In this document: positions 6,566 to 58,291 of the stretch, piece after piece
How positions within the stretch are numbered: the first letter of the stretch is position 1
Layout: every line of letters begins with the position of its first letter
DNA from: an uncultured Candidatus Micrarchaeota archaeon
GTDB taxonomy: Archaea > Micrarchaeota > Micrarchaeia > Burarchaeales > Fermentimicrarchaeaceae
Direction: 5' to 3'
Length of the DNA: 64,000 bases
NCBI GenBank assembly: GCA_963760615.1
Contig: CAVXDX010000012.1
Span: forward strand, 3,338 to 67,337
Notes under the pieces: generated by a model
Seen by the model: only the letters and a program-made list of their open reading frames with translations
The model's database searches: none
What the model was told of the DNA's origin: nothing
Translations under genes and position numbers: made by a program

Positions 6566-6638
6566 TGCGACCGCCGGGATTTGAACCCGGGTCGTTGGCT
6601 TGGAAGGCCAAAGTCCTACCAGGCTAGACTACGATCGC
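6566..6638 (-). tRNA. tRNA-Gly (anticodon UCC)
   Basis: Hand-folded cloverleaf on the reverse complement. Acceptor GCGATCG/CGGTCGC, anticodon stem TTGGC/GCCAA with loop CTTCCAA, and a GGTTCAAATCC T-arm. Confidence 0.8.
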
Positions 6639-6641
6639 AAG

Positions 6642-6791
<150 letters not shown>

Positions 6792-6836
6792 GCGAGATAA
6801 TTGTATCATGTGAATTTAATAATCCTTTTCGTGCGG

Positions 6837-7280
6837 CTAGATTAGGTGGTTGAAGTCCTCCTTCACAACATTCAAGACAAAATGCGTATTTGTCTTCTCA
6901 ACTCCTTTCATACCCAAGAGGTGTTTTACGAATCTGTTCATCTCCTCCCTATTTTTGAATTTGGCGATCACTATGGCGTCACAAGCTCCGGTTGCATCAT
7001 ACACTCCCATCACATGCGGCAGCTGTGCTATCTCCTTCTCCGCCTCAACTAACTTGCCTTTCCTCGCCATAATCTCAATTATTGCTGTGAGTTCATAGCC
7101 TAGTTTTTCATAGTCAAGTAGGATTGAATACCCCTGTATCACACCATTTCTTTCCAATCCCCTGACCTTTTGAATCACAGTTGAGGTTGAGACTCCCAAT
7201 TTTTTCGATAATGCCCTGAAGGATATTCTTGAGTCCTTACTGAGCTCTTGGATTGTCCTCAGACTCATTTCATCAAACAT
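6837..7280 (-). CDS. Lrp/AsnC family transcriptional regulator
   Basis: N-terminal HTH (RISFRALSKKLGVSTSTVIQKV) plus a C-terminal RAM domain, about 147 aa. Confidence 0.8.
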   Translation of the reverse strand: MFDEMSLRTIQELSKDSRISFRALSKKLGVSTSTVIQKVRGLERNGVIQGYSILLDYEKLGYELTAIIEIMARKGKLVEAEKEIAQLPHVMGVYDATGACDAIVIAKFKNREEMNRFVKHLLGMKGVEKTNTHFVLNVVKEDFNHLI

Positions 7281-23996: not shown

Positions 23997-24045
23997 AATA
24001 CCACCTAGGAGTTATCTCAGATGGGGTTTAAAAGTTTGACGCATT

Positions 24046-24453
24046 CTATTCAGTTGTTCTGCCGTCAAACTCCTCCGGGCTTGCAATTGCCTCTGCCTTT
24101 GTCTTCCTCACTACTTTGTCTTGGTGCTCGGGAGGGGAGTAAATGGTGTAGAGCTTGAGCTCCGAAGTTTTGGATGTATTGATCACGTTATGCTTTGCGC
24201 CCGCAGGGACTATTACTCCATCCCCATCCTTGACAGGGTATTCATTTCCGTCAATAACCACCTTTCCCTCTCCTGCTTCAAATCTGAAGAACTGATCCCT
24301 ATCCTTGTGCACCTCCATGCCTATCTCTTCCATGGGCTTGAGGTTCATCAAGACCAGCTGGCTGTTCTTCCCGGTGTACAAAACTCTGCGGAAATCTGAG
24401 TTTTTCCTAGTCTCCTTTTCAAGAGCTGTTGCATACCCTTTCATATTCGTCAC
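24046..24453 (-). CDS. Cupin-domain protein
   Basis: The cupin motifs G(x)5HxH(x)3,4E and a second His motif are present (MEVHKDRDQFFRFEAGEG...VPAGAKHNVIN). Confidence 0.6.
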   Translation of the reverse strand: MTNMKGYATALEKETRKNSDFRRVLYTGKNSQLVLMNLKPMEEIGMEVHKDRDQFFRFEAGEGKVVIDGNEYPVKDGDGVIVPAGAKHNVINTSKTSELKLYTIYSPPEHQDKVVRKTKAEAIASPEEFDGRTTE

Positions 24454-24585
24454 CTCTCAGTTACGATTTCAGTTTCAAGGTATATTAATATTGACTATAT
24501 TCGAGTAAAGCTAGCTTGAATATTTAAAAGAGATACATACGCCAGTTTGGGACAGACTCTGTTTCTTTAGGTTTTATAAAGACAA

Positions 24586-24599
24586 AAAGGCATAATTTA
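24586..24599 (+). promoter_or_regulatory. Conserved promoter-proximal 14-mer aaaggcataattta (copy 1) between TATA (24572-24580) and the ATG at 24603
   Basis: An exact 14/14 copy is also present at 25496-25509 and 28933-28946, each 4-5 nt upstream of a leaderless start. Confidence 0.6.
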
Positions 24600-24602
24600 A
24601 CC

Positions 24603-25475
24603 ATGCCAGAAAACGTCAAATTTACGGAAGAGCGAAACTCGGAAGAAAAGGTACCGAGAAGGGAGCACCTCCAGCCTATCAAGGAGATTATCCACCAATT
24701 ACATAAAAAGAAATTTGTCGAGCCAAGTTCAGTGAAAGCTGTGCTGCTGTATATAGAAATGGATTGGGGGAGCGGTGAGCTGCAGAAATGGGCTGATGAG
24801 GTTGAACGGAAAAAAGAGAGACTAGAAAAAAAGTTTAAGGTAAATGAGAAGCTCACCACTGAGATAAAAAGCATAATTGAGAGAGTGGGCACAGGTGTTC
24901 TAAGCGAGGATGAAATGAAAGAGGCTGAGAGGAGATTCAAAGGAGCGAAATATGCGTGGAGCCGCTATTCCATTATCCCTCTTATTGTCAAGGGTGGGCA
25001 AACAGCAGGCCATATTGAGCTGCTTAGAACTGCCCCGTTATTGGATGAGGTAGCGAGTTACGGGATAAAACTTCACGAGTCCGCCCATTTTATTCATCTT
25101 TTCATAGTTGAGAAGCGCCTTGAGAGCGGGGATATCAAAGACCCGATAATGAAAAGGCTTTATGAGTACATGCACGGGAAATATAGCAACGAGATAATTG
25201 ATGCCGCGGTGCGCGGCTATATCGGCCCGCGATATCAGGAGACCGTGGCGGAGGCTCTCATGTACTGCGTGCTGCACAAGGGCGAAACACCTGACAAGCA
25301 CAGGGATTTCAGGGTGGCTGACGAATTCAGGCTGCTCGGACATGACGTCAAGGAGCTGGGAAACCTTTTCAAAAGCAACCCTGAGACATTCAGAAAGCTC
25401 GTGGAAAACCCCTCATGGTGGGTGGAAGCTGGCAGCGTTGAAAAACTTGTTGAAAAGTTGAAGGAACCGGGCTAG
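24603..25475 (+). CDS. Hypothetical protein with an HExxH motif, candidate zincin-like metallopeptidase; first gene of the island promoter family
   Basis: LHESAHFIH, with a downstream ETVAEALMY as a possible third ligand. Leaderless with TATA at -30. The conserved 14-mer aaaggcataattta ends 4 nt before the ATG. Confidence 0.4.
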   Translation: MPENVKFTEERNSEEKVPRREHLQPIKEIIHQLHKKKFVEPSSVKAVLLYIEMDWGSGELQKWADEVERKKERLEKKFKVNEKLTTEIKSIIERVGTGVLSEDEMKEAERRFKGAKYAWSRYSIIPLIVKGGQTAGHIELLRTAPLLDEVASYGIKLHESAHFIHLFIVEKRLESGDIKDPIMKRLYEYMHGKYSNEIIDAAVRGYIGPRYQETVAEALMYCVLHKGETPDKHRDFRVADEFRLLGHDVKELGNLFKSNPETFRKLVENPSWWVEAGSVEKLVEKLKEPG

Positions 25476-25495
25476 TGACAATCTTAAAAAGGAGA

Positions 25496-25509
25496 AAAGG
25501 CATAATTTA
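25496..25509 (+). promoter_or_regulatory. Conserved promoter-proximal 14-mer aaaggcataattta (copy 2)
   Basis: Identical 14-mer. TATA tcttaaaaa at 25482-25490. ATG at 25514. Confidence 0.6.
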
Positions 25510-25513
25510 GGAT

Positions 25514-26479
25514 ATGCCAGCATACAAGAAAGAGAAGGCGGAGGGCATATCAGAAAGCCACCCTGCTTCGAAAGTTGACGTCTTCCCAGACCACCTAAAC
25601 ACCAAGATTGGGGATTACAAAGTTCGCATAGACAAGGATGGGGTAAAAGCAAGGAAGGAAGTAAAGGACCTGACGGTTCAACTTGCGCGGATGGATTATG
25701 AACAGTGGTATTACCCGTCGTTAGGTCCGAATTTTGTAGATAAGAAAGAAATTAAGGTGCCTTCCATTGATCTTGTCGTATCGTTCAGTTTTGAAGACCT
25801 ATCCAGTATAGCCGAGTTGAAGCCTAATGAGCTTAAGGGATATCCTGAAAGGACCTCCCAAAATTGGATAAATGTGAACGTTTCTGCAAAATTCCTTATT
25901 GACGATAGGGAGATGGATATGAAAGGATTCACCAGGGGAGTTGTCAAGCATTCAATGCCTCGTTGGCTTACTGACGCCAAGGAATCCAAGCTTCGTGATG
26001 CCATTATTCTTGATGATGATTTCCGCGGCAAGCTTGCCGGTGACATCAGGATGCTTGCCAGGAAGGTTGACTGGATGCTGAAATTCGACCCAAATGCCTC
26101 TGTGTCATTCAAAGCGCTAATGGCTGCAAAGAAGGCGGGGATAGAAAACTTCGACAGAGAAGTCGAGAGTCTGACAATACAGGTTTTGGAAATATCAGAG
26201 AAATGCGATGTTTTCAAGAACCCGGACGCCCTGCTTCAACTGGCCGTTAAGGCAAGGGAACAGGAAAATGGCGAAGCCATAGTTCTTAAACTTGGCGTCG
26301 ACCTTTTCATGGCAGCCCAATTCATCCGAGATGAAGCTAATAAGACGACTGACCCCGCTGCCAAGGCTTTCCGGGAAAACCAGGCAAAAAAACTGTATGC
26401 GCTTAGCCAGCTATTCCATGATTACGCTCTAAAGGACTTGAATGAAAAGAGAGACAAGAAGTCCAAGAAGGAGTCATAG
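25514..26479 (+). CDS. Hypothetical protein (321 aa, K/E-rich); carries the same conserved promoter-proximal 14-mer
   Basis: Clean ORF starting ATGCCAG with the 14-mer and TATA upstream. No recognisable domain. Confidence 0.4.
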   Translation: MPAYKKEKAEGISESHPASKVDVFPDHLNTKIGDYKVRIDKDGVKARKEVKDLTVQLARMDYEQWYYPSLGPNFVDKKEIKVPSIDLVVSFSFEDLSSIAELKPNELKGYPERTSQNWINVNVSAKFLIDDREMDMKGFTRGVVKHSMPRWLTDAKESKLRDAIILDDDFRGKLAGDIRMLARKVDWMLKFDPNASVSFKALMAAKKAGIENFDREVESLTIQVLEISEKCDVFKNPDALLQLAVKAREQENGEAIVLKLGVDLFMAAQFIRDEANKTTDPAAKAFRENQAKKLYALSQLFHDYALKDLNEKRDKKSKKES

Positions 26480-26530
26480 ACGTTTTTCTGACATTTCTGA
26501 AATCATCTAGGCTTTCTTCTGGTTGAGGTA

Positions 26531-26548
26531 ATGTAACTATGGTTACAC
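26531..26548. promoter_or_regulatory. 18-bp palindrome atGTAACtatgGTTACac (GTAAC-N4-GTTAC), candidate operator
   Basis: One of three near-identical palindromes in island intergenic regions. About 80 nt upstream of the 26612 start. Confidence 0.5.
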
Positions 26549-26611
26549 AAACTACATGGAAAGGAAGTCAGTTTCTTTATGGTTTATAAGCTTAAAACGA
26601 GCAATTTTAGC

Positions 26612-27913
26612 ATGCCAGAAGCGCACAAGAAAGCAGTCTATACGCAGTCCTTGATAGACAACCCTAAGCTTTCAGAAGACAAGGTAACCGGTGAGTTCAA
26701 GGGATTCCCACTAGAATACAGGAACGGCGTGATATACCTAAGCAAGGAATACCACCACATACATGCAATTATAGAGTGGTGGGATGAGGGAACGAAGGAT
26801 TTTATCAAGAGACCGGTGGTATTCGATTCAGTCAAGGTTACTGCGGAATTCAGGGGGAAGGAATTCGCACATGGATTCTACGGGGAGGATATAACAATTG
26901 ACTGCGGTTACGCCACTGCGGAATTCAAGCTTGACGGGAAGAAGTACAAGGTGGATTACGGCATATTTGAAGGCGACAATTCTAGTTGGTATCTGAACTA
27001 CTACTCGGACTTCGACAATGACAAGAAAAGACTGTATTTCATGCGTCATTTCAACAGCAGAGTCATGGATGATTTCGTCCCATTCAGGGACCATGGGCTT
27101 GTGGATGTCCTCAGGTTTGACAAGCATGTTGCTCCGCTCTTCGAAATTGAGCTGGAAACAAGAAAGAAAAAGCATGAACTGGTTGAAGACTTGAAGCTGG
27201 AGGCGCAACAGATTGGCAGGCAATACGACATAGAAAGAAACCCCCTTCCTCTGCAGCCGATATTCAAGAGGGCCAAGGAAGCAGGGGTGGTTGATAAACT
27301 CATAGGCGGACTGAGGAGGTGGGCCATGGACAGAAGAGAGCACATGTCAGATTGGGGAGAGGAGACGAGGTGGGTTTCGATTGAAGAGATTGCAAGCGGA
27401 AGGAGAAGGGAGAGCTTTGAGGACTTGGCAAGGAGGACTCAGGCAGAGAGGCTTGACAAGATAGCAGATGCGCTTCAGAAGTTCAACCAGAAACCCACTA
27501 AACAGCAGGAGAAGGAATCTGCGGAATGGCTTGCCTTCGACAATGCGTTGAAGAAGGTTGATGGAATGATGGCTGAGGAAAAGGACTGGAGCAGGGATAC
27601 TGGTAAATTTGCCGCTCGTGTCATTGAGGAGATAAAGCCCATATGCGAGCCGAGAAAGTTTGCGGAAACCCTGAAAAGACTCATGGAGTTCAAGAAGGAT
27701 GATGGAGTGGTTGAGCAACTCTCTGCACTTTACAGCCCTATGTATTTCAGGAACTTCATCAGAATGATGGGTGGGGATATCAGCAATGAGGAACTTGAGG
27801 AGCTGTTCGGAAAGGGAAAGGAGCGCCTGGGAGAGTATGTGAGAGGCGTGGCTGATGAGACCAAGGGGAGGGAGCTTCTTCTTTTGAGCGAGGAGATTCT
27901 GAAGAGATGCTGA
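26612..27913 (+). CDS. Hypothetical protein (433 aa); start reassigned to the ATGCCAG at 26612, not the track start at 26579
   Basis: The ATGCCAG start context is shared with the two upstream genes. TATA gtttataag sits at -30 relative to 26612. The GTAAC-N4-GTTAC palindrome sits at -80. Confidence 0.4.
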   Translation: MPEAHKKAVYTQSLIDNPKLSEDKVTGEFKGFPLEYRNGVIYLSKEYHHIHAIIEWWDEGTKDFIKRPVVFDSVKVTAEFRGKEFAHGFYGEDITIDCGYATAEFKLDGKKYKVDYGIFEGDNSSWYLNYYSDFDNDKKRLYFMRHFNSRVMDDFVPFRDHGLVDVLRFDKHVAPLFEIELETRKKKHELVEDLKLEAQQIGRQYDIERNPLPLQPIFKRAKEAGVVDKLIGGLRRWAMDRREHMSDWGEETRWVSIEEIASGRRRESFEDLARRTQAERLDKIADALQKFNQKPTKQQEKESAEWLAFDNALKKVDGMMAEEKDWSRDTGKFAARVIEEIKPICEPRKFAETLKRLMEFKKDDGVVEQLSALYSPMYFRNFIRMMGGDISNEELEELFGKGKERLGEYVRGVADETKGRELLLLSEEILKRC

Positions 27914-28034
27914 ACAGCCAGCACACGGGCTCCTGACAGGAAGTTTGGGAGGGGGCAGCAGACGATTAGCGGAAAGTTACCCCTTGCCAATGTTTTTAAA
28001 CGACAAACCTAGTATCAATACAGAGGCGGGGTAA

Positions 28035-28481
28035 TTGGATGTTCTTTTAGATACAAATGTCTACCTGGCGCATATAAAAGGTGAAATGCAGGGCTCTCAT
28101 GCAAAAATTATACTGGAAAGGGTGGCAGCAGGGGAGCTTGCCCTTTGCTACAACGGCATAATCCGGATGGAAATAGAGAGAAAGTATGGGTATTACCTAG
28201 AACCGTTTTGCGCCATACTCGAAGAGCTGAGAAAATTAGGCAGAGTTGTGGATGTTGAAATCACAAATGAGATGAGTGAAAAGGCAATACAACTCGATAG
28301 GAAGCTGATAAAATACAGAAGAGGAAAGGAAGAAAGATTCGGAAAGATTGATTGCTTGCTGATACTTCTTGCAAAGAAACATGGATGCATGCTTGTGACT
28401 ATTGAGAAAGAATTAATTGAAGCCGCAAGAGAAGAGGGAGTCAAGGCAGTCAGTCCAATGGATCTAGCGATGAGTTTCTAG
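28035..28481 (+). CDS. PIN-domain (VapC-like) nuclease, TTG start
   Basis: LLDTNVYL N-terminal acidic motif and further conserved acidic positions in a 148-aa PIN-sized protein. Confidence 0.6.
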   Translation: MDVLLDTNVYLAHIKGEMQGSHAKIILERVAAGELALCYNGIIRMEIERKYGYYLEPFCAILEELRKLGRVVDVEITNEMSEKAIQLDRKLIKYRRGKEERFGKIDCLLILLAKKHGCMLVTIEKELIEAAREEGVKAVSPMDLAMSF

Positions 28482-28793
28482 GTTCGCTTCCTTTATGAGC
28501 ATGCCCAGAGCTTTACGTTCATTGTTATCCGCCCTCTTTAGAAAATCTTTCCACAACGATTTTCTGGCTGCCCTTCCTAGTTTTGCTGCGCTCTTTGCTC
28601 TATCTCGTTTAACACTCCCGAAAGTCTCCTCAATAATCTTTAATGCCCTTTGTCTTAAAAGTTCAGTCTTTCCTAATTTACTCATATCTTTTACGGCCTC
28701 ACTTCTAGAGGTATAGTATCCTTCTTTAACCAGAATATCTATCTCCTCAACGTCTTTTACTGCATACCGAACTGGTACGACAATGGATTTCAT
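28464..28793 (-). CDS. Ribbon-helix-helix (CopG/VapB-like) DNA-binding protein
   Basis: MKSIVVPVRYAVKDVEEIDILVKEGYYTSRSEAVKDM is the RHH beta-strand plus EEID...SRSEA helix pattern. Convergent with the PIN gene and overlapping it by 18 nt. Confidence 0.5.
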   Translation of the reverse strand: MKSIVVPVRYAVKDVEEIDILVKEGYYTSRSEAVKDMSKLGKTELLRQRALKIIEETFGSVKRDRAKSAAKLGRAARKSLWKDFLKRADNNERKALGMLIKEANLETHR

Positions 28794-28895
28794 TGTATAC
28801 TAAAGCGTATACAGTATTTAAAAGCTTTTGCTGTTCGTATTAAGCCGAATTGTTATTTCATCAAGATTGATAGAATGACCAAGAGGGACGGGGGA

Positions 28896-28913
28896 ATGTA
28901 ACCCGGGTTACAA
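28896..28913. promoter_or_regulatory. 18-bp palindrome atGTAACccggGTTACaa, candidate operator
   Basis: In the divergent intergenic region between the RHH gene (28793) and the 28951 gene. Confidence 0.5.
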
Positions 28914-28932
28914 AGCAGGCTTAAATATCGGG

Positions 28933-28946
28933 AAAGGCATAATTTA
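28933..28946 (+). promoter_or_regulatory. Conserved promoter-proximal 14-mer aaaggcataattta (copy 3)
   Basis: Identical 14-mer. TATA gcttaaatat about 28918-28927. ATG at 28951. Confidence 0.55.
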
Positions 28947-28950
28947 AGGC

Positions 28951-29118
28951 ATGACAGAGGCAAAAAAGCCGGCTGCCAGCATGAGAAAAGATATAGAGCG
29001 GCAGCAGGAGAAGATGAGGGAGCTGTTCGACGAGCTCAAAGAAACCGTGAGCAAACCCAAATGGGATGAGAAGCCGAAGGGGTTCTTCACCGCGCTTGAG
29101 AAAAAGCTCGGCAACTAA
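28951..29118 (+). CDS. Small hypothetical protein (55 aa), not in the supplied ORF track
   Basis: Read directly from the + strand: MTEAKKPAASMRKDIERQQEKMRELFDELKETVSKPKWDEKPKGFFTALEKKLGN. Preceded by the conserved aaaggcataattta 14-mer and TATA. Confidence 0.4.
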   Translation: MTEAKKPAASMRKDIERQQEKMRELFDELKETVSKPKWDEKPKGFFTALEKKLGN

Positions 29119-29716
29119 CCTTAAGGCAACGGATATAATACACTTTGTCACGGCGGGTGAATCAAAATGTAACATTATACTGACTTCAGATGATGACTTT
29201 ATTTCAGAAGGTACAAGATTTCTAAAGATGAAAAAAGAAGATGACAAGCTAAAGTTCTGTAAGCCTATCGAAAAGAATGTGCTAGATGCAGTTGATAATC
29301 TCACTAAAAAAGTTCCTTAAAGTATATAGATTTTTGTGTATAATATAGCATCCGTGAATCACTCGAAACCGTCCGGTTTTGCCAGAAAAAGCAAAAAAAG
29401 CGGTAAAATCCGGCAGAACAGGCAGTATCTCTCCAACTTCTTCAAAAATCCTGAAAAGCCAGCCTAGACCGGAGAAGCCGGCTCAGGCGTAAGCCTCTTC
29501 CGGCTGCGCCAAAGCGCAGCAAGTGTTAGTTTGACCGTTTCACGATGAAGAGAAAAAGCAGGTGAAACGGTAACCGATGCTGCTCAGACGTAAGCATATT
29601 CCGAACTGCCTACCGTTTCGACCGATTCTACAGACGTGTTTTATACCCTAGCAGAAATTTGAAAAAAAGCAGAAAGCTTACGCTATACTCGCAGTCAATG
29701 ACTACTGCCCACCTCC

Positions 29717-29917
29717 CTACTTACTCAGAGCTTTTGCTATTACTATCAGAACTGGTGTTATGATTGTCAGTGCTACTGCAGCTGTTATAACTTGTAGTAT
29801 CTGAGAACCTAGTGGATTACTGGTTGTTATTAGATAGAGTGCTGCTAGTACGATGATTGCAACTGTTCCACTTGCAATTCCAATTCCAAATATCTTCAGT
29901 GAACTCATGCCTTTCAC
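29717..29917 (-). CDS. Small membrane protein (66 aa, 2 TM)
   Basis: Hydrophobic small ORF. Confidence 0.3.
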   Translation of the reverse strand: MKGMSSLKIFGIGIASGTVAIIVLAALYLITTSNPLGSQILQVITAAVALTIITPVLIVIAKALSK

Positions 29918-30237
29918 CTCCAGCCCTTACTCGCTAGAAAGGTTTTTAAATCGCCTCTTACAAAACTAGTAACAGTTATGTAAGAGGTGGTAGCGGGAGA
30001 GGTCATGGTTACACGTGTACCCTCCCCCATCTCTTTCTAGTTTTCAAAACTGCTATAATTTTGGAAGTAAAAGTTTTAATAACATATTGTCCAACAAATT
30101 CAGTCGCTCCGACGAGAAGATGCCGGAATGTGAGTTCTGCTGGTTCAATCGAAGTATTTTATACCCGAATTGAAGATGCTGGTTTTTGTGCGAGTTGAGA
30201 GGCAGATATTTAAACCGAAAAATGCATAACTTATTCC

Positions 30238-30479
30238 GAGTGATGAGCCGGCAGCTTTCCCGCAAGGGAGGAAGTTCCACCCATCGCGAAGGCTGAGGGA
30301 ACCTAAGGTTCGGACGGGAACAGAAACGAGACTGGCCGATTCAGATGAGGATGAAGCAATGAGATGGGTCGAGCCGGGTGAAACGCGCCCGTCGCAAAAG
30401 CAGGATGTGCGATGCAAGGCCTTTGAGCCGCTTAGTCCAATGCTGTCTAAAACAAAAGGTGGGCTATGGCTCGTCACTC
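30238..30479 (+). ncRNA. rnpB: RNase P RNA (compact, about 242 nt)
   Basis: P1 is 12 bp: GAGUGAUGAGCC pairs with GGCUCGUCACUC. P2 is GGCAGC/GCUGUC. P3 is a hairpin with a GCAA loop. CR-I is GGAGGAAGUUCCACCC (E. coli has GGAAAGUCCGGGC). CR-V is ACAAAAGGUGGGCUAUGG (E. coli has ACAGAACCCGGCUUAUCGG) with compensatory CCAC/GUGG in P4. A GGGUGAAAC (CR-II) segment and a GCAAGGCC (CR-III) segment are present. TATA atatttaaa sits about 28 nt upstream. Confidence 0.8.
30433..30479 (+). repeat. 47-bp perfect direct repeat, copy 1 (3' end of rnpB); att-like
   Basis: tagtccaatgctgtctaaaacaaaaggtgggctatggctcgtcactc is identical to 31673-31719. Degenerate similarity extends about 20 nt further 5'. Confidence 0.85.
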
Positions 30480-30989
30480 TTTCTGCTTGCTTGGCTTCTT
30501 TATGACAGGTTTTTCCTCTGGCTTTGTTTTCTGTAAAGTAAGCGCAAGCGACCATCCGATGGTTACTCCGCAGACCCACAAAAACCCGAAGATTATAGGA
30601 CTGATGTCGGAATGGTATATCGGGCACGCATCCAAAATTCCAAATAGGGGTTTGTTGTATGGCCTTCCGGAGGTGCAGTGGAAAATGAATGGTATCAGCG
30701 CCAGTATGGCAATGAAGAAAAGGAAAGTGAGAATCCCGCTGGCAATCAGATCTATTGAATCCAGATGGTATATTCTCACCGCAGCGTAGCCGCCGCTGAT
30801 AAAAATGATAAGGACAGCCAGCAGATACCCGAAGTAAAAGTTGCTTCCAAATGCAAATTGAGAGTAGCCCGGGAGAGAATCGTACATGGGCTCGGTTATT
30901 GCGTATATGAGAAATATCAAAGCCACTGGAATAAGCGATGCTTTCAGCATTTTCTTCCATTCCATGAGACCACCCATCAGATATGCCAT
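30474..30989 (-). CDS. Membrane protein (171 aa, about 4 TM) inside the repeat-bounded segment
   Basis: Hydrophobic ORF. Its stop overlaps the rnpB 3' end convergently. Confidence 0.45.
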   Translation of the reverse strand: MAYLMGGLMEWKKMLKASLIPVALIFLIYAITEPMYDSLPGYSQFAFGSNFYFGYLLAVLIIFISGGYAAVRIYHLDSIDLIASGILTFLFFIAILALIPFIFHCTSGRPYNKPLFGILDACPIYHSDISPIIFGFLWVCGVTIGWSLALTLQKTKPEEKPVIKKPSKQKE

Positions 30990-31041
30990 TCCGAGATTTA
31001 TAAAGTTTCACACCGGGGGCTTTTTTTCCAGCAGAATGCGC

Positions 31042-31362
31042 TTATAACTCCGTATGGATTACCTTGAGGAGCAGACCGTCCTTTATCTTTTCGAACAGCA
31101 CAAGGTCCTTGTCATGAATCTTCTCCTCCTCAACCAGCTTCTCAGGCAGTGTGACCACTTTTGAATGCCCCACCACCCTCACCCTCCTGGCCAACGACTT
31201 CCTCCTGCCGGTCAGGACTTCCCACCTCAGCATTTCGCTTGAGGGAAAGAAGGTCTCGGAGCAGCCCTGGCACTTCCATCCTCTAATCCTGACGCCTTCG
31301 CTTACTTCCGTGTATTTTTTCAACGGTCCTTTGCAGATTGCGCATCTTTCCATAAACATCAC
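31042..31362 (-). CDS. Zinc-ribbon plus AbrB/SpoVT-like swapped-hairpin domain protein, putative antitoxin
   Basis: N-terminal CAICKG...CQGC ribbon. The C-terminal VVGHSKVVTLPEKLVEEEKIHDKDLVLFE resembles AbrB/MazE-fold DNA binders. Confidence 0.45.
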   Translation of the reverse strand: MMFMERCAICKGPLKKYTEVSEGVRIRGWKCQGCSETFFPSSEMLRWEVLTGRRKSLARRVRVVGHSKVVTLPEKLVEEEKIHDKDLVLFEKIKDGLLLKVIHTEL

Positions 31363-31613
31363 CTCACAAGCTTCAGATGAATTAATATAATCTCCTTGTC
31401 AGTTTCGGCATAGACAAGCTCCCAAACTCCATTTTTTGCTTTCCTCTCAACCCTTACCTTCTCCTTGGATTCCTTCTCATGCTCTCCTTTCTCCAGGATT
31501 TCCAGAACAAAATCCAGATTTTTCCTGTATATGTTGTAAAGTTCATTCTTGAAATGCCCTGTCTCAATCAAATCTTTGTTCTTGAATCGCAGCTCTTCAG
31601 GCATATATCTCAA
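31359..31613 (-). CDS. RelE/ParE-like small protein (84 aa), putative toxin
   Basis: The C-terminal GVWELVYAETDKEIILIHLKLVR resembles the RelE/ParE beta-sheet region. Overlaps the downstream AbrB-like gene by 4 nt. Confidence 0.4.
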   Translation of the reverse strand: MRYMPEELRFKNKDLIETGHFKNELYNIYRKNLDFVLEILEKGEHEKESKEKVRVERKAKNGVWELVYAETDKEIILIHLKLVR

Positions 31614-31672
31614 CTGAGTAAAGTATATACTCTTGGATATTTATATATCTTTCTATAATTGAGGCTTTGCTG

Positions 31673-31719
31673 TAGTCCAATGCTGTCTAAAACAAAAGGT
31701 GGGCTATGGCTCGTCACTC
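31673..31719 (+). repeat. 47-bp perfect direct repeat, copy 2 (displaced partial rnpB 3' end); att-like
   Basis: Identical 47-mer with a gapped similar 5' extension (ggctttgctgtagtcc versus ggcctttgagccgcttagtcc). Confidence 0.85.
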
Positions 31720-31736
31720 ATTATTGTTTATTGTGT

Positions 31737-32612
31737 TCAGGCGATTCCGTACTGTTTTTTTATCTCCTCGAAAGTAGGCAGGGCAAACTCCTTTCTTGCT
31801 TTTACTACTTCCTGAAAATCCTCAGGATTGACCCCGAGCTTCTTGGCTATGTCCTTCACATCTAACAGCTTAACCTTTGAAAGCTTTACTACTCCGAACC
31901 AGTGCATCGCCCTCACGTCATCCCAGAGAAGCTCGCCATTGGGGTTTTTCGCCAGCTCTTCTATTATCTCCTTCCTGGCTGCATAAATCTTGTCGTCATC
32001 CCCGAGAATCCTGTTGTTGAAAAAAAGAAAGATTTTCGCAAACGTGACTTCCTCCATGTCTTCAGATTTTTTGCTGCCATCTGAAGGTTTGAAATTTCTT
32101 ATTCTCTCTTTTGTTTCCTCAAGTTCGAAGATACGACCTCTGAGTTTCATGTTTTCATCTCCAAACTCGTGCATCACCAAGCTCGTTTCATGGTTATTGC
32201 TCTCATCCCTCAGTAGGACATGCACATCAACATCGCTCCTTGCCCCTGCGGTTCCTTTTGCCCAGCTCCCCATAAATGAAAGTCCTATAAACTTGTCCCC
32301 GTTAATGAATTTTAGCGCTTTCTCAGCTCTCCCCAGCAGCTCTATGAGTTCTTCATAGCGCTGTTTTTCCAAAGCAGTGCCCTTTCTACCTATAAACTCC
32401 GGGTATTCGGCTGACTTGAGGACTTCCGCCCTTGCGGCCTGCTTCAGCTCATTCTTGAATGACTTCGTGAGAAACTTTTCAGCAGCAGCCCTTTCGTCAT
32501 CTGACAGGATGCTTTTCTTCAGGGCTTCCTTGAAGTCTGAGCCTATCTCATCCCTGAGTTTTTGCTCTATCTGCTTGTCCTTTGAAATTTTCTGCATGTC
32601 TAGATTAGGCAT
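31737..32612 (-). CDS. Polymerase-beta-superfamily nucleotidyltransferase domain protein (291 aa)
   Basis: GSWAKGTAGARSDVDVHVLL is the hG[GS]x9-13Dh[DE]h NTase motif. The protein is much longer than a minimal MNT. The GTAAC-N4-GTTAC palindrome sits at -85. Confidence 0.55.
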   Translation of the reverse strand: MPNLDMQKISKDKQIEQKLRDEIGSDFKEALKKSILSDDERAAAEKFLTKSFKNELKQAARAEVLKSAEYPEFIGRKGTALEKQRYEELIELLGRAEKALKFINGDKFIGLSFMGSWAKGTAGARSDVDVHVLLRDESNNHETSLVMHEFGDENMKLRGRIFELEETKERIRNFKPSDGSKKSEDMEEVTFAKIFLFFNNRILGDDDKIYAARKEIIEELAKNPNGELLWDDVRAMHWFGVVKLSKVKLLDVKDIAKKLGVNPEDFQEVVKARKEFALPTFEEIKKQYGIA

Positions 32613-32691
32613 TTCTTTCTATTTAATCTTGCCTCCCCCCCAACAACCAAATTAACCAGTAAGATTTCCCACCGGGGGCTTTTTTCCAGTT

Positions 32692-32709
32692 ATGTAACCA
32701 TGGTTACAT
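32692..32709. promoter_or_regulatory. Perfect 18-bp palindrome atgtaaccatggttacat, candidate operator
   Basis: Perfectly self-complementary. About 85 nt upstream of the nucleotidyltransferase gene start (32612). Confidence 0.55.
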
Positions 32710-32788
32710 TGCCTTGACACGGATTTATTTTGTTACAGTAACAAAAAATGCCTCTTTTCGTGCTGATTTTGTTATAATAACAAATTAA

Positions 32789-33070
32789 CTAGTCCGCCCC
32801 GCACCAGAATCCGCCGTACTTCTTTATGTACTTCTCCTCCTGCTTGAAATGCTTCCTGCAGAGGTAGCTCCATCCCGAGTCCTTTCCGATGTGGTAAACC
32901 TCCTTGAATGGTTCATCGGTGCAGCCCTTATAATCGCAGAAATGCCCCTCCATGTATCTTCTGGCGCATTTCTCGGAGCAGAACTCGCCGTATTTCTTCA
33001 GGGAGACTGCCTTCCTGCCCGTTTTTCCATCGCACCATCTGCACTCTCTTTCTCTACGCATGGTATGCAA
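32789..33070 (-). CDS. Cys/His-rich small zinc-binding protein
   Basis: Multiple CxxC/HxxC pairs in 93 aa (CRWCDG...CSEKCARR...HFCDYKGC...CRKH). Confidence 0.35.
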   Translation of the reverse strand: MHTMRRERECRWCDGKTGRKAVSLKKYGEFCSEKCARRYMEGHFCDYKGCTDEPFKEVYHIGKDSGWSYLCRKHFKQEEKYIKKYGGFWCGAD

Positions 33071-33413
33071 CTGCCTTTATCGATTTCCTATGGGCCGCTC
33101 CTTCACCGACGGATTGTCTTATCAGCGCAAGCTCTATCTTCTTTATTTCTTGCACTATTGGGCTTGCCTCGTTGAGCTGGTAGAGCTTTATCCTGCCAAT
33201 CTGCCTTGTCACTTTCATTATGTTCCTTTCCTCAAGCCTGTCCCAGTATTTGTACAGGGTCGTCCAGCCAACTCCCGAGCCATTTGCTATTTCCTTCTTG
33301 GTGAAATCCCGCAGTCTGTTCTCCAGTAGGAAATCAATTATTCTGAATAATGGCGTGTCCCCGAAAAATTCAAGAAGAAGGGAACTACCACCGCTAGGGT
33401 CGCCAAGACTCAC
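33054..33413 (-). CDS. Winged-helix transcriptional regulator
   Basis: LFRIIDFLLENRLRDFTKKEIANGSGVGWTTLYKYWDRLEERNIMKV shows a wHTH pattern. Divergent from the 33560 gene. Confidence 0.5.
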   Translation of the reverse strand: MSLGDPSGGSSLLLEFFGDTPLFRIIDFLLENRLRDFTKKEIANGSGVGWTTLYKYWDRLEERNIMKVTRQIGRIKLYQLNEASPIVQEIKKIELALIRQSVGEGAAHRKSIKAVAYHA

Positions 33414-33559
33414 TTATATCACCTCTAAGCATTATTATTAACAGTTAATAGTTAACACACAAAAGTATTTAAATGTTCGCTAATAAATATATGAGCATTC
33501 TTCAAAAAGAACAGTTGGAGAGTAGTCTGAGGTGACCGTGACTCCAACGGAGAATACGT

Positions 33560-33850
33560 ATGAGTGAGATTGACAGGGCATATTCAAAAGAAGAGCTTAA
33601 GGCGCACATTCTCTATAAGCTTGCAAGGAGGAGGATGTGGGGAGGCAAACACCTCCCGATTATGTATGTCCGTTCTGGAATTCCTCAGAAATATTTGAGT
33701 CAGTTAGATGAGATTGCGAAGGAACTTATAAATGAAGGACTTCTCATTCAAGCTCCGAAAACAGGCCAGCTTCATGTCTCACTCAATCCGCGTATGAAGA
33801 GGGAAATAATTGAGCTGATTGAAAGACATTTCGGAAAAGTTTACTGGTGA
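33560..33850 (+). CDS. Hypothetical small protein (96 aa), possible wHTH
   Basis: Clean ORF with no strong motif. Confidence 0.3.
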   Translation: MSEIDRAYSKEELKAHILYKLARRRMWGGKHLPIMYVRSGIPQKYLSQLDEIAKELINEGLLIQAPKTGQLHVSLNPRMKREIIELIERHFGKVYW

Positions 33851-33903
33851 AACACGAGCCACTCACCCTTTTAAATTTTCTATTTCACAACTAATACGCC
33901 AAG

Positions 33904-34027
33904 GCCAAGGTAGCTCAGCTTGGTTAGAGCACCAGACTCATAAGCTCAGCTTCATGAGTGATGAGCGCTATGCGCGATGATATGCTGCGTAATCTGGGTG
34001 TCGCGAGTTCAAATCTCGCCCTTGGCA
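33904..34027 (+). tRNA. tRNA-Met (anticodon CAU) with a 49-nt intron (33943-33991) at the canonical 37/38 position
   Basis: Acceptor GCCAAGG/CCTTGGC, D-arm GCTC...GAGC, anticodon stem CCAGA/TCTGG, loop CTCATAA, T-arm GCGAGTTCAAATCTCGC. Intron segment AUGAGU pairs with ACUCAU of the anticodon region (BHB-type helix). No CCA is encoded. Confidence 0.75.
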
Positions 34028-38493: not shown

Positions 38494-41400
38494 TTAGCAA
38501 GCACAGTATAAAGTACTACACGCGGTAACGCATTGGTAGTCGGTTCCCGTGTGGCAGAAGTTATCGCAGTTGCAACAGACCTGAGACCCAGGACAAGTAC
38601 CAGTTGGATGTGCGTTATCACAAGCGCCAGCTGCTGACTGACATGTTCCTCCGCTGCATGTACCTGATTGGCATACTCCAGGGCATAGGCATGCTTGCCC
38701 GTTTGCTAAAGAACCTGCGGTTATGCAGTATGAAGCACCTGTACCTCCTCCCTTGCACATATTGGCGCACTTATAGTTGTTGGTTGCGCCGCATGCTACT
38801 GCATTGCAACTGTTTGAACTGCAGGTACCACAGACTGCACAGGCAGCTGTTGATGAAACTGCAGTGCATGATGGGGTTGATGTGGTGGTAGTGCAGCCTA
38901 CTGTTGGGAAATAGTGGGTTGCGTCGCAGTTTGTGATTGGGTTGGATGAGCAGGTGGCGAGAGTGCCAAAGTAATAGCCGCAGAGACTGGGTGTATTTGC
39001 GTAGTATCCTTGGCATACGCCGGGGTTACCCGAACATGCTCCTGAAGTGCACATTCCAGCGCAGTAGCAGGTTGCTCCTGTTCCGCCTTTGGCTACGCAG
39101 TTTCCTCCACCTGTTCCTAGACCATTGCATACACTGGGACTAGTACAGCCATAGCCGTTTGTTGTACCGCATGATTTTGTACCGCAGGTATCACCAGTGC
39201 CGGTGCAGTCTCCGCATACCGCGCAATAGCCTGAAACACATGATAGCTGAGCGCCTAGTATGCAGGTTGGTTGTGATGCGCTGACTTTATAGCCTGATGC
39301 GCAGAATGCATTTGCGGGTCCGCATGAGGCAGAATTTCCATAGTAATAGCCGCAGAGATTTGGTAATGACTGGTAATAGCGTGAGCATTTATGGGTGGTG
39401 GTATTGCAGACCAGCCCACCTGTGCACATTTCAGGACAGTAACAGTCAGCTCCCTCAGTGCTGGATGGGGGTACGCAGTTTCCTCCACCTGTTCCTAGAC
39501 CATTGCATACACTGGGACTAGTACAGCCATAGCCGTTTGTTGTACCGCATGATTTTGTACCGCAGGTATCACCAGTGCCGGTGCAGTCTCCGCATACCGC
39601 GCAATAGCCTGAAACACATGATAGCTGAGCGCCTAGTATGCAGGTTGGTTGTGATGCGCTGACTTTATAGCCTGATGCGCAGAATGCATTTGCGGGTCCG
39701 CATGAGGCAGAATTTCCATAGTAATAGCCGCAGAGATTTGGTAATGACTGGTAATAGCGTGAGCATTTATGGGTGGTGGTATTGCAGACCAGCCCACCTG
39801 TGCACATTTCAGGACAGTAACAGTCAGCTCCCTCAGTGCTGGATGGGGGTACGCAGTTTCCTCCACCTGTTCCTAGACCATTGCATACACTGGGACTAGT
39901 ACAGCCATAGCCGTTTGTTGTACCGCATGATTTTGTACCGCAGGTATCACCAGTGCCGGTGCAGTCTCCGCATACCGCGCAATAGCCTGAAACACATGAT
40001 AGCTGAGCGCCTAGTATGCAGGTTGGTTGTGATGCGCTGACTTTCTTGCTTGCTGGACAACTTGTGATTGGGTTGGAGGAGCAGGTGGAAGAAGTTCCAT
40101 TGTAATAGGCGCAGAGATTTGGTAATGACTGGTAATAGCGTGAGCATTTATGGGTGGTGGTATTGCAGACCAGCCCACCTGTGCACATTTCAGGACAGTA
40201 ACAGTCAGCTCCTTCGATGCTGGATGGAGCAGCACAGTGGCTTGCTCCGGTTCCCACTCCATCGCAGACATTACCACTTGTTGAGCATCCATATGTAGTT
40301 CCACAAGCAGCAATCCCGCAGGTATCCGTCCCATCACCAACACAGTCTCCGCAAGTTGCACATGAACCAGATGAAGTTTCTGGCTGGCAGAATTTATAGC
40401 CTGATGATAAACAGTCTTGAATTGGGAAGTACTTTCCTGAACTGCAGTAGGTTGTAGTAAGTCCAGAACCGCATCCACCCGTTGTTGTTGACTGATAACC
40501 ACAGAGGTTGGTGGTGTTCCGGTAGAAGTAAGTTTGTGCTGTGCAGATACCACCCACGCATGTCGTTCCACCGGTGCAGACATTGCCGCAGTATCCGCAG
40601 TTGCTGTCGTTTGTATTCAGGTCAGGAACCTCGCATGCATCTGATGAATCATTATTGCAGTTTACAGAGGTGCCAGGGCAGTTAGTATAAATTCCGCCAG
40701 TGCAGTAGAACATATTTCCACAGTCATCTATTGATCCTGTGCAGCATTGAATCTGGTAGTTGATTCTGCCATCGCTGCCGCCTGTTGAGTTTGAGCATAT
40801 ACGGGTGCCTTTTGAGATTTTATCACATGCCGGCCAGAATGTTAGGGTATTGGGAGGACAGCCATTTTGACCTAAGCAGGATGCATTGCATATGCCGTTA
40901 AATGTGCAGGCTGCATTGCAGGCAGCAATGCATTGGCCTCCCTGACATGCAGTTCCCATCGGGCAGACATTGCCGCAGTGTCCGCAGTTGCTGTTGTTTG
41001 TAAGCAGATTCACCTCGCATGCATCTGATGAATTATAATTGCAGTTTGCAAACCCAATTGAACAACCAGTGCAACTGCCACTGCTGCAGTATGATGTGTT
41101 CCCGCAGCTTGTTATCGCCCCGTTGCAGCATGAAACATTGTAGTTGATTGTGCCTGTTGTTCCACCTGACGAGTCTGTACACAGTTGAACATTGGCACCA
41201 ACATTGCCATTGCAGGCTGGGAATATTGAGGAACAGCCGGAACAGGTTGCATTGCATTTGTTGTTAAATGTGCAGTCTGGCATGCATGTGTTGGTGCACG
41301 CAGCGCAGTCACTTGGGCAGTTGACGCAGCTTTCTCCATTCGCAGTATCGCAGTGGGTATCTCCGCACCAGCCAATTGTTGTTGATGTATCCTGATAACA

Positions 41401-58208: not shown

Positions 58209-58220
58209 CTGCTCACCCAG

Positions 58221-58291
58221 AGCCAGGAAGGGGAATCGAACCCCTCTATGCCGGTCTGCAGCCGGCCACATGGCCACTCTGTCATCCTGGC
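58221..58291 (-). tRNA. tRNA-Cys (anticodon GCA), 12 nt upstream of cysS on the same strand
   Basis: Acceptor GCCAGGA/TCCTGGC, anticodon stem GCCGG/CCGGC with loop CTGCAGA, T-arm GGGGTTCGATTCCCC. Confidence 0.75.

Follow-up and report, generated by a model that had tools for sequence, protein, structure and literature searches.

Small cassettes apparently accumulated at the 3′ end of an archaeal RNase P RNA gene

Introduction

The ends of tRNA and tmRNA genes are textbook sites of integration. Integron arrays gather small units, each of one to three genes and all oriented alike, with a recurring site and a fixed chromosomal anchor; those on chromosomes carry toxin-antitoxin cargo, and their content turns over rapidly between close relatives. 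For archaea, the main review of integrases names only tRNA genes, protein-coding genes and intergenic sites as targets. Archaeal integrases are described as having att sites that correspond to 40-50 bp blocks from RNA-gene 3′ ends, "with various 5′ limits" (PMC8371274). SSV-type "suicidal" elements and pNOB8-type elements conform to this picture, in that their 40-50 bp direct repeat is the 3′ part of a structured-RNA gene, the target is rebuilt, the copies have variable 5′ limits, and integration can occur in tandem at one locus (PMC8371274). In streptococci, CIMEs at tRNA-Lys or fda are flanked by attL and attR, lack genes for integration and transfer, and form a stack where a conserved gene ends (PMC5704250). 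Finally, the ssrA (tmRNA) gene of Dehalococcoides, a single-copy essential gene for a structured RNA, is the shared site of diverse islands, and these ssrA-specific islands drive strain-level diversity (PMC3146451).

Here we describe an array at rnpB, the gene for RNase P RNA, in a 64-kb stretch of archaeal DNA (the window). It shares the features listed above with SSV-type and pNOB8-type elements. Those elements use the 3′ ends of tRNA genes, however, whereas the target here is rnpB; the units here measure 1.2-2.1 kb and lack an integrase, and the att site has no overlapping int(N) and int(C) halves. The likeness to streptococcal CIMEs is also close, but this array is archaeal, no array showed a functional partner element, and the units follow a regular plan with a conserved leader, unlike random decay products. 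The Dehalococcoides islands are ~12 kb long and have an integration module by the site in 16/31 cases, whereas the rnpB array has no such module. Integron cassette arrays resemble the rnpB array in their small units, recurring site, anchor, toxin-antitoxin cargo and turnover; unlike integrons, the rnpB array has no adjacent intI, its repeat does not form an attC-type hairpin, and its cassettes have their own promoters. No account of integration at rnpB was found in a full-text literature search.

Results

The rnpB gene is intact at 30238-30479 (+ strand). It matches the archaeal RNase P RNA model, Rfam RF00373, over the full model (positions 1-288) with 86.3 bits, above the gathering score of 84; orthologues in the related loci L001, L003, L004, L006 and L007 score 88.8-91 bits, and rnpB genes are 90-99% identical across the loci compared, the window gene sharing 90-95% identity with those of its relatives. 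The earlier note on this DNA had reported an exact duplication of the last 47 nt of the gene, and this was confirmed. Within the window there are exactly two occurrences of the 47-mer TAGTCCAATGCTGTCTAAAACAAAAGGTGGGCTATGGCTCGTCACTC, with up to 3 mismatches permitted: an attL-type repeat at the end of rnpB (30433-30479, +) and an attR-type copy (31673-31719, +) which closes a first cassette and opens a second; none of 100 dinucleotide shuffles contained two matches. An independently assembled Logan unitig, L020 (ERR10755944), is identical to positions 30450-31702 and reaches 30 nt into each repeat, which excludes misassembly of the window contig as the source of the rnpB-repeat arrangement. L020 was considered as an excised circle and rejected, since its 1253 nt are the 1193-nt unique part plus 30 nt per repeat, as expected of a k=31 unitig. 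A further claim, of degenerate similarity continuing 5′ of the second copy, did not hold: the flanks compared there, GAGCCGCT and CTTTGCTG, are unlike, and weak similarity is found solely 3′ of the copies, at 11/19 positions in a T-rich stretch. The 3′ segment of the target is thus directly repeated, and rnpB itself is regenerated at full length. The 47-mer has neither dyad symmetry nor a hairpin, folding at -2.1 kcal/mol (z = -0.31 relative to shuffles), and an alignment of 12 copies places a 15-nt conserved core, TATGGCTCGTCACTC, at 30465-30479 of the attL-type repeat.

The comparison set consisted of eight related rnpB loci (L001-L007 among them) and array fragments from two further samples (L011 and L028), most of the contigs being short. 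Comparison of empty with occupied sites, as proposed in the earlier note, identified a near-empty variant in L002, in which only 76 nt separate rnpB from an intron-containing tRNA(CAU) gene; this tRNA gene and the genes that follow are the same as in the window. The corresponding spacing is ~3.4 kb in the window, 2.3 kb in L005 and 2.5 kb in L006. L002 therefore provides the unoccupied site expected for an integrative element, and relative to it ~3.4 kb of the window (30480-33864) are inserted. The tRNA(CAU) gene itself (33904-34027, +; Rfam RF00005, 57.6 bits) is conserved and bounds the variable region on its right. In all nine rnpB loci, the window included, divergence begins precisely past ...GTCACTC, the 3′ end of rnpB, with unrelated sequence following in each, and additional rnpB-end copies are present in seven relatives (rnpB loci L003, L004, L005, L006 and L007, and array fragments L011 and L028). 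From the near-empty site, the common junction and the extra copies we conclude that the window holds two stacked cassettes. The same observations support the proposal that DNA without its own integrase was inserted at the rnpB 3′ end. The 1.2-kb element that had been delimited by the two repeats stands as an inserted unit; it is merely the first of two cassettes which total ~3.4 kb. Cassette G+C is 0.42-0.46, as against 0.49-0.53 in the core genes downstream.

Cassette 1 (30480-31719) contains a membrane-protein ORFan, a leader motif, a toxin-antitoxin-like pair and the 47-nt copy. Gene A (30474-30989, -) is a 171-aa ORF (163 aa in public gene calls) with four hydrophobic segments, whose stop codon lies inside the rnpB end. 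It has no match in Pfam or NCBIfam, and the sole homologue found, P0070 (78% identity), is in another array fragment. Upstream of gene A is the conserved leader motif TAAAGTTTCACACCGGGGGCTTTTTT (31001-31026, +), of which nine instances were aligned across loci. Gene B2 (31042-31353, -; 103 aa, 106-aa ORF) combines a zinc ribbon with CxxC motifs and an AbrB/MazE-like part, and is a putative antitoxin; its own matches are weak (Pfam MazE_antitoxin, E=0.005; TIGR02609 doc_partner, E=4.5e-4), and its homologues carry PF04014. Gene B1 (31359-31604, -; 81 aa, 84-aa ORF) is a putative toxin with a predicted RelE/ParE-superfamily fold. From its sequence alone, searches of Pfam, NCBIfam and PDB profiles gave no identification, and a single-sequence AlphaFold2 model (pLDDT 53) was unusable. 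With a predicted RelE/ParE-fold toxin beside a small, putative DNA-binding antitoxin, the genes at 31042-31604 have the composition of a type II toxin-antitoxin pair of the RelE/ParE superfamily. The three cargo descriptions given previously, a four-segment membrane protein, a CxxC protein weakly similar to MazE/AbrB and a RelE/ParE-like predicted fold, are upheld. Distant homologues of the toxin-antitoxin-like pair occur beside SRP RNA and tRNA-Ser (L013) and beside a 23S 3′ end (L019). We considered whether they mark integration at other RNA genes, and treat their proximity as coincidence because no repeats were found at those loci.

The second rnpB-end copy is preceded by an AT-rich, TATA-like stretch which had been taken as a sign that the rnpB fragment could be transcribed. 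This stretch (31605-31661, -; ...TATTTATATATCTTTCTATAATTG) is the promoter region of the 81/103-aa pair and the edge of a two-gene module conserved elsewhere; it accompanies the pair at L021, L025 and L008, loci without any rnpB fragment. It therefore gives no evidence for transcription of the fragment. This bears on the idea that the copy is retained for a function, either as a transcribed rnpB 3′ fragment or as an opposite-strand terminator or 3′ UTR for the converging cassette gene. The terminator version was suggested by CCTTTTGTTTTAG, a T-rich tract in the reverse complement of the copy, with which a transcript would end in sequence complementary to RNase P RNA. It fits that each copy has a converging cassette gene on its right, with a stop codon in the copy or within ~80 nt, and that the P4-strand segment is specifically missing from two decayed copies. 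But copies of 15-24 nt are kept despite lacking the T-rich tract, the AT-rich stretch belongs to the pair, and a function of this kind would account for the retention of copies and not for their origin. We regard it as very improbable.

Cassette 2 (31720-33864) contains a nucleotidyltransferase gene, a leader motif with palindromes, three small regulator-like genes and a decayed copy. Its gene A (31737-32612, -) encodes a 291-aa nucleotidyltransferase of the MNT/Pol-beta type (Pfam NTP_transf_2, E=1.3e-5; Polbeta; weak MntA match). Exact look-ups of the 171-aa and 291-aa ORFs gave no match with longest-ORF starts and matches with called starts. A second leader motif (32660-32685) opens a block extending to 32784 (+) in which it is followed by the palindromes ATGTAACCATGGTTACAT (32692-32709) and TTGTTACAGTAACAA / TTGTTATAATAACAA; L001, L005, L011 and L028 share this block. 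Beyond it lie ORFs for a 93-aa Cys-rich, putatively zinc-binding protein (32789-33070, -; no family match in Pfam or NCBIfam), a 119-aa putative winged-helix regulator (33054-33413, -; weak DUF7342 and HTH matches) and a 96-aa product (33560-33850, +), each with a homologue in L005. The cassette ends in a decayed rnpB-end remnant, GAGCCACTC (33856-33864, +), which abuts the conserved promoter region of the tRNA gene, CACTCACCCTTTTAAATTTTC; when the junctions of L002, L005 and L006 were compared, the homologous module of L005 was found to end in a 17-nt copy, GCTATGGCTCATCACTC. A permissive Rfam scan of 30400-33950 returned nothing credible that would make the leader motif a fragment of another RNA gene.

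The copies were compared across loci. CACTC terminates every additional copy, and a 15-nt core, TATGGCTCRTCACTC, is common to them and invariant or nearly so. The shortest repeats are 15 nt and the longest 47 nt; at full length (~46-47 nt), the repeat adjoins at least four different left-hand modules. Internal copies often have AGTCAAATGC where rnpB has AGTCCAATGC, and in L005 a G of the resident rnpB corresponds to an A in the copy; given these mismatches, the copies are not in-situ duplications of the resident gene. Internal copies have decayed from the 5′ side or in the middle while the 15-nt core persists (L007 and L011 are examples), and in the window, L005 and L006 the copies far from rnpB are the shorter ones.

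Cassette modules recur in other array positions and other loci, and the breakpoints of these mosaics all fall in conserved sequence, namely an rnpB-end copy, the leader motif, the rnpB flank or the tRNA flank. The ~70-nt conserved leader is a second recurrent breakpoint, at which homology between loci begins or stops and genes are reshuffled. The main rival to site-specific integration is suggested by this pattern: host homologous recombination alone would loop cassettes out, reinsert them Campbell-style via 15-47 nt, and swap array segments between strains, using rnpB, the copies, the leader motif and the tRNA flank as homology. The position of every breakpoint in conserved sequence is what such recombination predicts, no recombinase gene was found in the scanned ORFs, and a second insert (29649-30166), upstream of rnpB, has a different, imperfect repeat. 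Homologous recombination between tandem integrated elements has also been cited as a route of module exchange (PMC8371274). Left unexplained are the origin of the first rnpB-end copy and the exact ending of all copies at the last base of rnpB; nor does homologous recombination have reason to spare one end, yet the terminal 15 nt are intact in L007 and L011 while the 5′ part or the middle decays. That it acted alone we think rather unlikely.

Searches for a recombinase bear out the earlier description of the 1.2-kb unit as integrase-free. Among window ORFs of at least 200 aa scanned with Pfam (a set that excludes the ORF at 38494-42645), there was no match to an integrase, transposase or other recombinase, and the cassette ORFs of the window had no recombinase match in Pfam or NCBIfam. 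None was found in the 13 kb upstream of rnpB, and sampling of related-locus cassettes with Pfam found no integrase. The window unit thus lacks the internal integrase that a site-specific integrative element is expected to carry. An IS6-family transposase is confined to L007 and L004, where it lies outside the cassettes. Likewise, no matching attP-bearing element was found in IMG/VR, phage collections, plasmid collections or a JGI metagenome scan; IMG/VR viral contigs gave no match to either part of the repeat (5′ part, 3′ core) or to the leader motif, and no relatives of the wHTH protein or the nucleotidyltransferase, and a blastn search with the complete array had no match in PLSDB plasmids or GenBank phages.

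Several specific candidates were set aside. The ORF at 56775-58277, which overlaps a tRNA and might have been part of a split integrase, encodes a cysteinyl-tRNA synthetase. An SSV-type "suicidal" integrase provirus was rejected, the sequences that touch the copies being the membrane ORFan, the nucleotidyltransferase gene and the promoter side of the toxin-antitoxin-like pair. An integron was rejected, as no intI lies beside the array and the 47-mer forms no attC-type hairpin. So was a transposon, IS or MITE, as the cassette ends have no terminal inverted repeats and the repeat varies from 47 to 15 nt.

The cassettes fit the definition of CIMEs, being att-flanked and without integration and transfer genes (PMC5704250), and could accordingly be leftovers of larger, integrase-bearing plasmids or viruses once integrated at rnpB, their backbones deleted to leave immobile scars. 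Tandem accretion at an RNA-gene end is known for streptococcal tRNA-Lys (PMC5704250), and the shortening of rnpB-distant copies in the window, L005 and L006 would suit such decay. Across the nine rnpB loci and two array fragments, mostly short contigs, there was however no sign of an integrase-bearing partner, and none of them shows a fragment of a backbone or integrase. The units are uniformly small and repeat one plan (gene, leader motif, toxin-antitoxin-like pair, copy), and independent random deletions would not leave the same leader motif at each junction. Decay from larger elements is, in our judgement, improbable, more so than homologous recombination alone.

Discussion

On the best reading of these data, the rnpB 3′ end is a recurrent site where small, recombinase-free cassettes, mostly toxin-antitoxin-like, have piled up, and at which relatives carry different cassettes or almost none. 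As to how this came about, we lean modestly towards rnpB as an attB-type integration hotspot, at which serial att-type integration was carried out by a recombinase acting in trans. The observations on which this is based are the repeats, the near-empty site, the junction common to nine loci, the conserved core, the shuffling of modules, and the lack of a recombinase gene in the scanned ORFs. Small circular DNA units of ~1.2-2.1 kb would carry, as attP, a copy of ~46-47 nt of the rnpB 3′ end, and a site-specific recombinase (most likely a tyrosine integrase) with its gene elsewhere would insert them by crossover within the terminal conserved core. Every insertion would restore an intact rnpB and displace the earlier rnpB-end copy downstream, so that cassettes would pile up in the interval from rnpB to the tRNA(CAU) gene. 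The copies and the ~70-nt leader may double as breakpoints for gene exchange between arrays. Against an att-specific enzyme stands the shuffling at the leader motif, which such an enzyme leaves without explanation. Also counting against this reading are the negative searches for a recombinase in the scanned ORFs and for an attP-bearing element, the repeat's lack of dyad symmetry and hairpin, the interpretation of L020 as a unitig bounded by repeats, and the repeat-flanked insert upstream of rnpB.

A more integron-like version of events gives the leader a part. In it, a cassette platform would be anchored on an essential ribozyme gene, and circulating circles would be captured at rnpB or at internal copies by a chromosomal or helper recombinase. 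A unit of ~1.2-1.6 kb would then consist of a gene, a leader, a toxin-antitoxin pair and a 46-nt site, the repeat serving as recombination site and terminator, and the leader supplying expression signals and a second point of exchange. We offer this tentatively and give it clearly less credence than serial att-type integration.

The locus consists of stacked mini-cassettes which have no recombinase of their own and share common punctuation elements. Their turnover outpaces the accumulation of point changes in rnpB, and construction of a small accessory-gene and toxin-antitoxin array in this manner is undescribed for archaea. The site is a defined sequence of 15-47 nt beside an essential single-copy gene and, should the recombinase be found, could be used for genetic insertion in an uncultivated lineage. 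For annotation, partial RNase P RNA matches downstream of rnpB would be better read as att scars than as pseudogenes.

A minor observation concerns the other side of rnpB, where the genes differ from locus to locus. The 518-nt insert at 29649-30166 is flanked there by an imperfect direct repeat whose sequence is different from that of the rnpB-end copies, which hints that short-homology recombination is perhaps general in this lineage.

An exact repeat of the rnpB 3′ end and two stacked gene units

The gene for the archaeal RNase P RNA, rnpB, is present in full length on the plus strand at 30238-30479 (Rfam, 86.3 bits with the gathering score at 84, model positions 1-288), and its final 47 nt recur at 31673-31719 with no mismatch, as the earlier note had claimed. 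Two matches to the 47-mer were obtained in 0 of 100 shuffles, and the proposed search for more copies yielded no third one in the window with 3 mismatches permitted. The similarity said to extend further 5′ was not recovered: the 5′ flanks of the two copies are unrelated, and a weak match (11 of 19 positions) is found instead in the T-rich 19 nt on their 3′ side. A Logan unitig (L020, run ERR10755944) is identical to window positions 30450-31702 and ends 30 nt inside each repeat, as expected of a k=31 assembler at a 47-nt repeat; it is independent support for the arrangement and not evidence of a circle.

All genes of this stretch lie on the minus strand except one, a 96-aa ORF at 33560-33850 (plus). 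Between the copies, a 171-aa ORF (30474-30989) encodes four hydrophobic segments and has its stop codon within the rnpB end; it is an ORFan, matching only itself and one 78% homologue in a search of 5.8 billion proteins. The 103/106-aa protein, also between the copies, matches AbrB/MazE and 'doc_partner' weakly and contains CxxC pairs, and since these features agree with the gene calls made earlier from sequence, those calls are upheld. Copy 2 (31673-31719) is followed by minus-strand genes for a 291-aa nucleotidyltransferase, a 93-aa Cys-rich protein and a 119-aa HTH-like protein, by the 96-aa ORF and, 3′ of these, by an intron-containing tRNA gene (33904-34027, anticodon loop CTCATAA). G+C content is 0.42-0.47 over 30.5-33.8 kb versus 0.49-0.53 in the core genes to the right. 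The last three genes of the second unit share 80% DNA identity with L005, a related rnpB locus in which a 17-nt rnpB-end copy closes them; at the corresponding position, 33856-33864, the window reads GAGCCACTC. The second unit of the window closes with a decayed copy, so that two stacked units are present, 30480-31719 and 31720-33864.

A near-empty site and a common junction in related loci

Seven related loci (L001-L007) came from a degenerate rnpB-end pattern scan of species-representative genomes and JGI metagenomes; two more samples, reached through homologues of cassette proteins, contributed array fragments (L011/L012 and L028). The suggested comparison of empty and occupied sites is provided by L002, where the rnpB end is followed by 31 nt, CACTC and the tRNA promoter, the same tRNA, and then the genes found in the window from 34028 onward, including a 413-aa protein, a 242-aa protein and dihydroorotase. 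The rnpB-to-tRNA spacing is 76 nt in this near-empty locus; the window has 3.4 kb there, and L005 and L006 have 2.3 and 2.5 kb, respectively. All nine rnpB loci are 90-99% identical through ...GTCACTC and mutually unrelated from the following base.

Extra rnpB-end copies are the norm, and every one lies on the rnpB strand and terminates 3′ in CACTC. Their lengths are 46 nt in L004, 37 and 24 nt in L006, 30 nt in L003, 17 nt in L005, and 45, 15 and a diverged ~39 nt in L011; the one extra copy of L007 carries a 32-nt insert in place of its middle, and copies bound the L028 fragment on both sides. Alignment of 12 copies shows little or no variation in the final 15 nt, TATGGCTC(G/A)TCACTC, and a 5′ part that is eroded or variable. 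The full form, 46-47 nt beginning (T)AGTC, adjoins at least 4 different left-hand modules. Internal copies of L004, L011 and L028 read AGTCAAATGC versus AGTCCAATGC in rnpB, and L005 has A in the copy versus G in the resident gene; because of these differences we conclude that the copies arrived from elsewhere and are not duplicates of the resident rnpB. If the copy served only as a terminator or as RNA, its origin would be left unexplained; that reading is very improbable as the whole account, and such a role is conceivable as an add-on.

In the decayed copies of L007 (reverse-complemented, 4612-4673) and L011 (reverse-complemented, ~4899-4937), it is specifically the middle segment, ACAAAAGGTGGG (P4 3′ strand in the ribozyme core), that has been lost or replaced; the 5′ CAATGCTG... 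part is retained, as are the 16-18 nt at the 3′ end. The two copies decayed independently.

In its anatomy the array matches attL/attR scars: a structured-RNA gene is repeated at its 3′ end and regenerated, the copies share a sharp 3′ boundary and a full block of 46-47 nt with element-type variants, a near-empty site exists and units are stacked. The proposal of an integration scar at rnpB thus stands, with the amendment that the 1.2-kb unit is only the first of two. Given this anatomy, we favor, at somewhat better than even probability, a model in which a recombinase supplied in trans would insert units serially and site-specifically at the rnpB end, with the crossover falling inside the conserved 15 nt. 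A reading of the units as decay remnants fits the CIME definition of PMC5704250, but backbone fragments are not seen and the junction motif is identical each time, making this origin improbable.

Modules are shuffled at a conserved leader block

A conserved block, (hairpin)-TAACCnG-TAAAGnTTCCCACCGGGGGCTTTTTTCC, separates the first gene of each unit, on its promoter side, from the remaining genes; it is often followed by a perfect 18-bp palindrome, ATGTAACCATGGTTACAT, and by TTGTTAYARTAACAA palindromes. Nine instances can be aligned across loci, those in the window at 31001-31026 and 32660-32709. No strong single-stranded DNA structure and no Rfam family match were found for the block. Taken at ~70 nt (...TAACCnGTAAAGnTTCCCACCGGGGGCTTTTTTCC; window 31001-31026 and 32660-32784, and L001, L004, L005, L007, L011 and L028), it stands in front of unrelated cassette genes and is a marker of recombination breakpoints. 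The 18-mer palindrome recurs with 2 mismatches at 26531-26548, in the upstream accessory region.

Edges of homology between loci recur at two kinds of place, the leader block and the ends of copies. The 81/103-aa pair, a putative RelE-fold toxin and zinc-ribbon/AbrB-like antitoxin, is found with its copy at 94% identity in L011, where the first gene is different; L004 and L007 have a RelE/ParE-like and ribbon-helix-helix-like pair in common and differ in their first genes. A PsbP-like gene adjoins rnpB in L007 and L003 and lies 3′ of an internal copy in L004, and in L028 the 78% homologue of the window membrane ORF is joined to a nucleotidyltransferase/HEPN-like pair that is also present in L001, L006 and L007. 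Host homologous recombination through the copies and leader, doing all of the moving, would account for these mosaic breakpoints and for the missing recombinase, and a 518-nt insert upstream of rnpB (29649-30166), with a different imperfect repeat, is also consistent with it. As it leaves unexplained why the terminal 15 nt alone are protected in decaying copies, we consider this main rival possible, though distinctly less probable than site-specific integration.

The 81/103-aa pair and its AT-rich promoter (ending ...TATTTATATATCTTTCTATAATTG) recur at 84-88% DNA identity at loci that have no rnpB fragment (L021, from the same assembly as L001; L008 to L010; L022 to L027). The modules therefore come from a wider mobile pool, and the TATA-like stretch before copy 2, once thought able to transcribe the rnpB fragment, is the pair's own promoter. 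Distant homologues of the pair, of ~63-66% identity, lie directly 3′ of SRP RNA and tRNA-Ser in L013 (9753-11208) and directly 3′ of the 23S rRNA end in L019 (5378-6409). No flanking repeats were found at either, and their RNA-gene neighbors may be coincidence.

Recombinase search and relation to known systems

Pfam was applied to all window cassette ORFs and nearly all window ORFs of ≥200 aa (ORF 38494-42645 left out), and NCBIfam to the cassette ORFs and three upstream ORFs of no known family. Neither detected an integrase, transposase or resolvase among the ORFs covered, in agreement with the original reading. The genes flanking the array are housekeeping genes, including glutamine synthetase, CysRS, SAH hydrolase and dihydroorotase, and scanned cassette ORFs of other loci are toxin-antitoxin-like, PsbP-like or without assignment. 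Searches of IMG/VR, GenBank phages and PLSDB plasmids did not yield a matching attP.

The sole mobile-element enzyme seen, recognized by eye from sequence, is an IS6-family transposase of the DDE type that has an N-terminal zinc finger and lies outside the cassettes at the tRNA-side array end of L007 (reverse-complemented, 6293-7126) and L004 (11715-12582). It occupies the expected place of the last rnpB-end copy and tRNA, and a methionyl-tRNA synthetase fragment lies beyond it in L007, which suggests an IS-mediated rearrangement at that array end.

The nearest counterparts among known systems are archaeal tRNA-targeting integrative elements, streptococcal CIME accretion arrays and the ssrA-specific islands of Dehalococcoides (PMC3146451); integron arrays are alike in architecture only. 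Integron, IS/MITE and suicidal-integrase classes were rejected on their defining features. A review of archaeal integrases names as targets tRNA genes, protein-coding genes and intergenic sites and no others (PMC8371274), and full-text literature searches of incomplete coverage turned up no case in which rnpB serves as an integration target. We regard rnpB as a new target and a regular array of recombinase-free mini-cassettes as unusual.

The region upstream of rnpB and the tRNA intron

Upstream of rnpB, 24000-30200 is an accessory island, variable among relatives, that encodes a cupin, ORFs of 290, 321 and 444 aa without a family match, a PIN-domain protein (28035-28481) and a ribbon-helix-helix protein (28464-28793); the L004 relative of the 290-aa ORF has an HExxH motif. 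The 518-nt insert lies ~70 nt 5′ of the rnpB TATA box, is missing from L004 and encodes a 66-aa membrane ORF (29717-29917, minus strand). Its flanking imperfect 32-nt direct repeat (region 29617-30166), exact at the right end, TTTTATACCC, resembles the rnpB-end copies in pattern, its right edge being sharp and its left part diverged, and differs in sequence.

The tRNA(CAU) gene at 33904-34027 was detected by Rfam and missed by ARAGORN. Its intron of ~50 nt has box C-like motifs (GTGATGA, GATGAT) and holds GAGTGATGAGC, which repeats exactly the first 11 nt of rnpB (P1 5′ strand).
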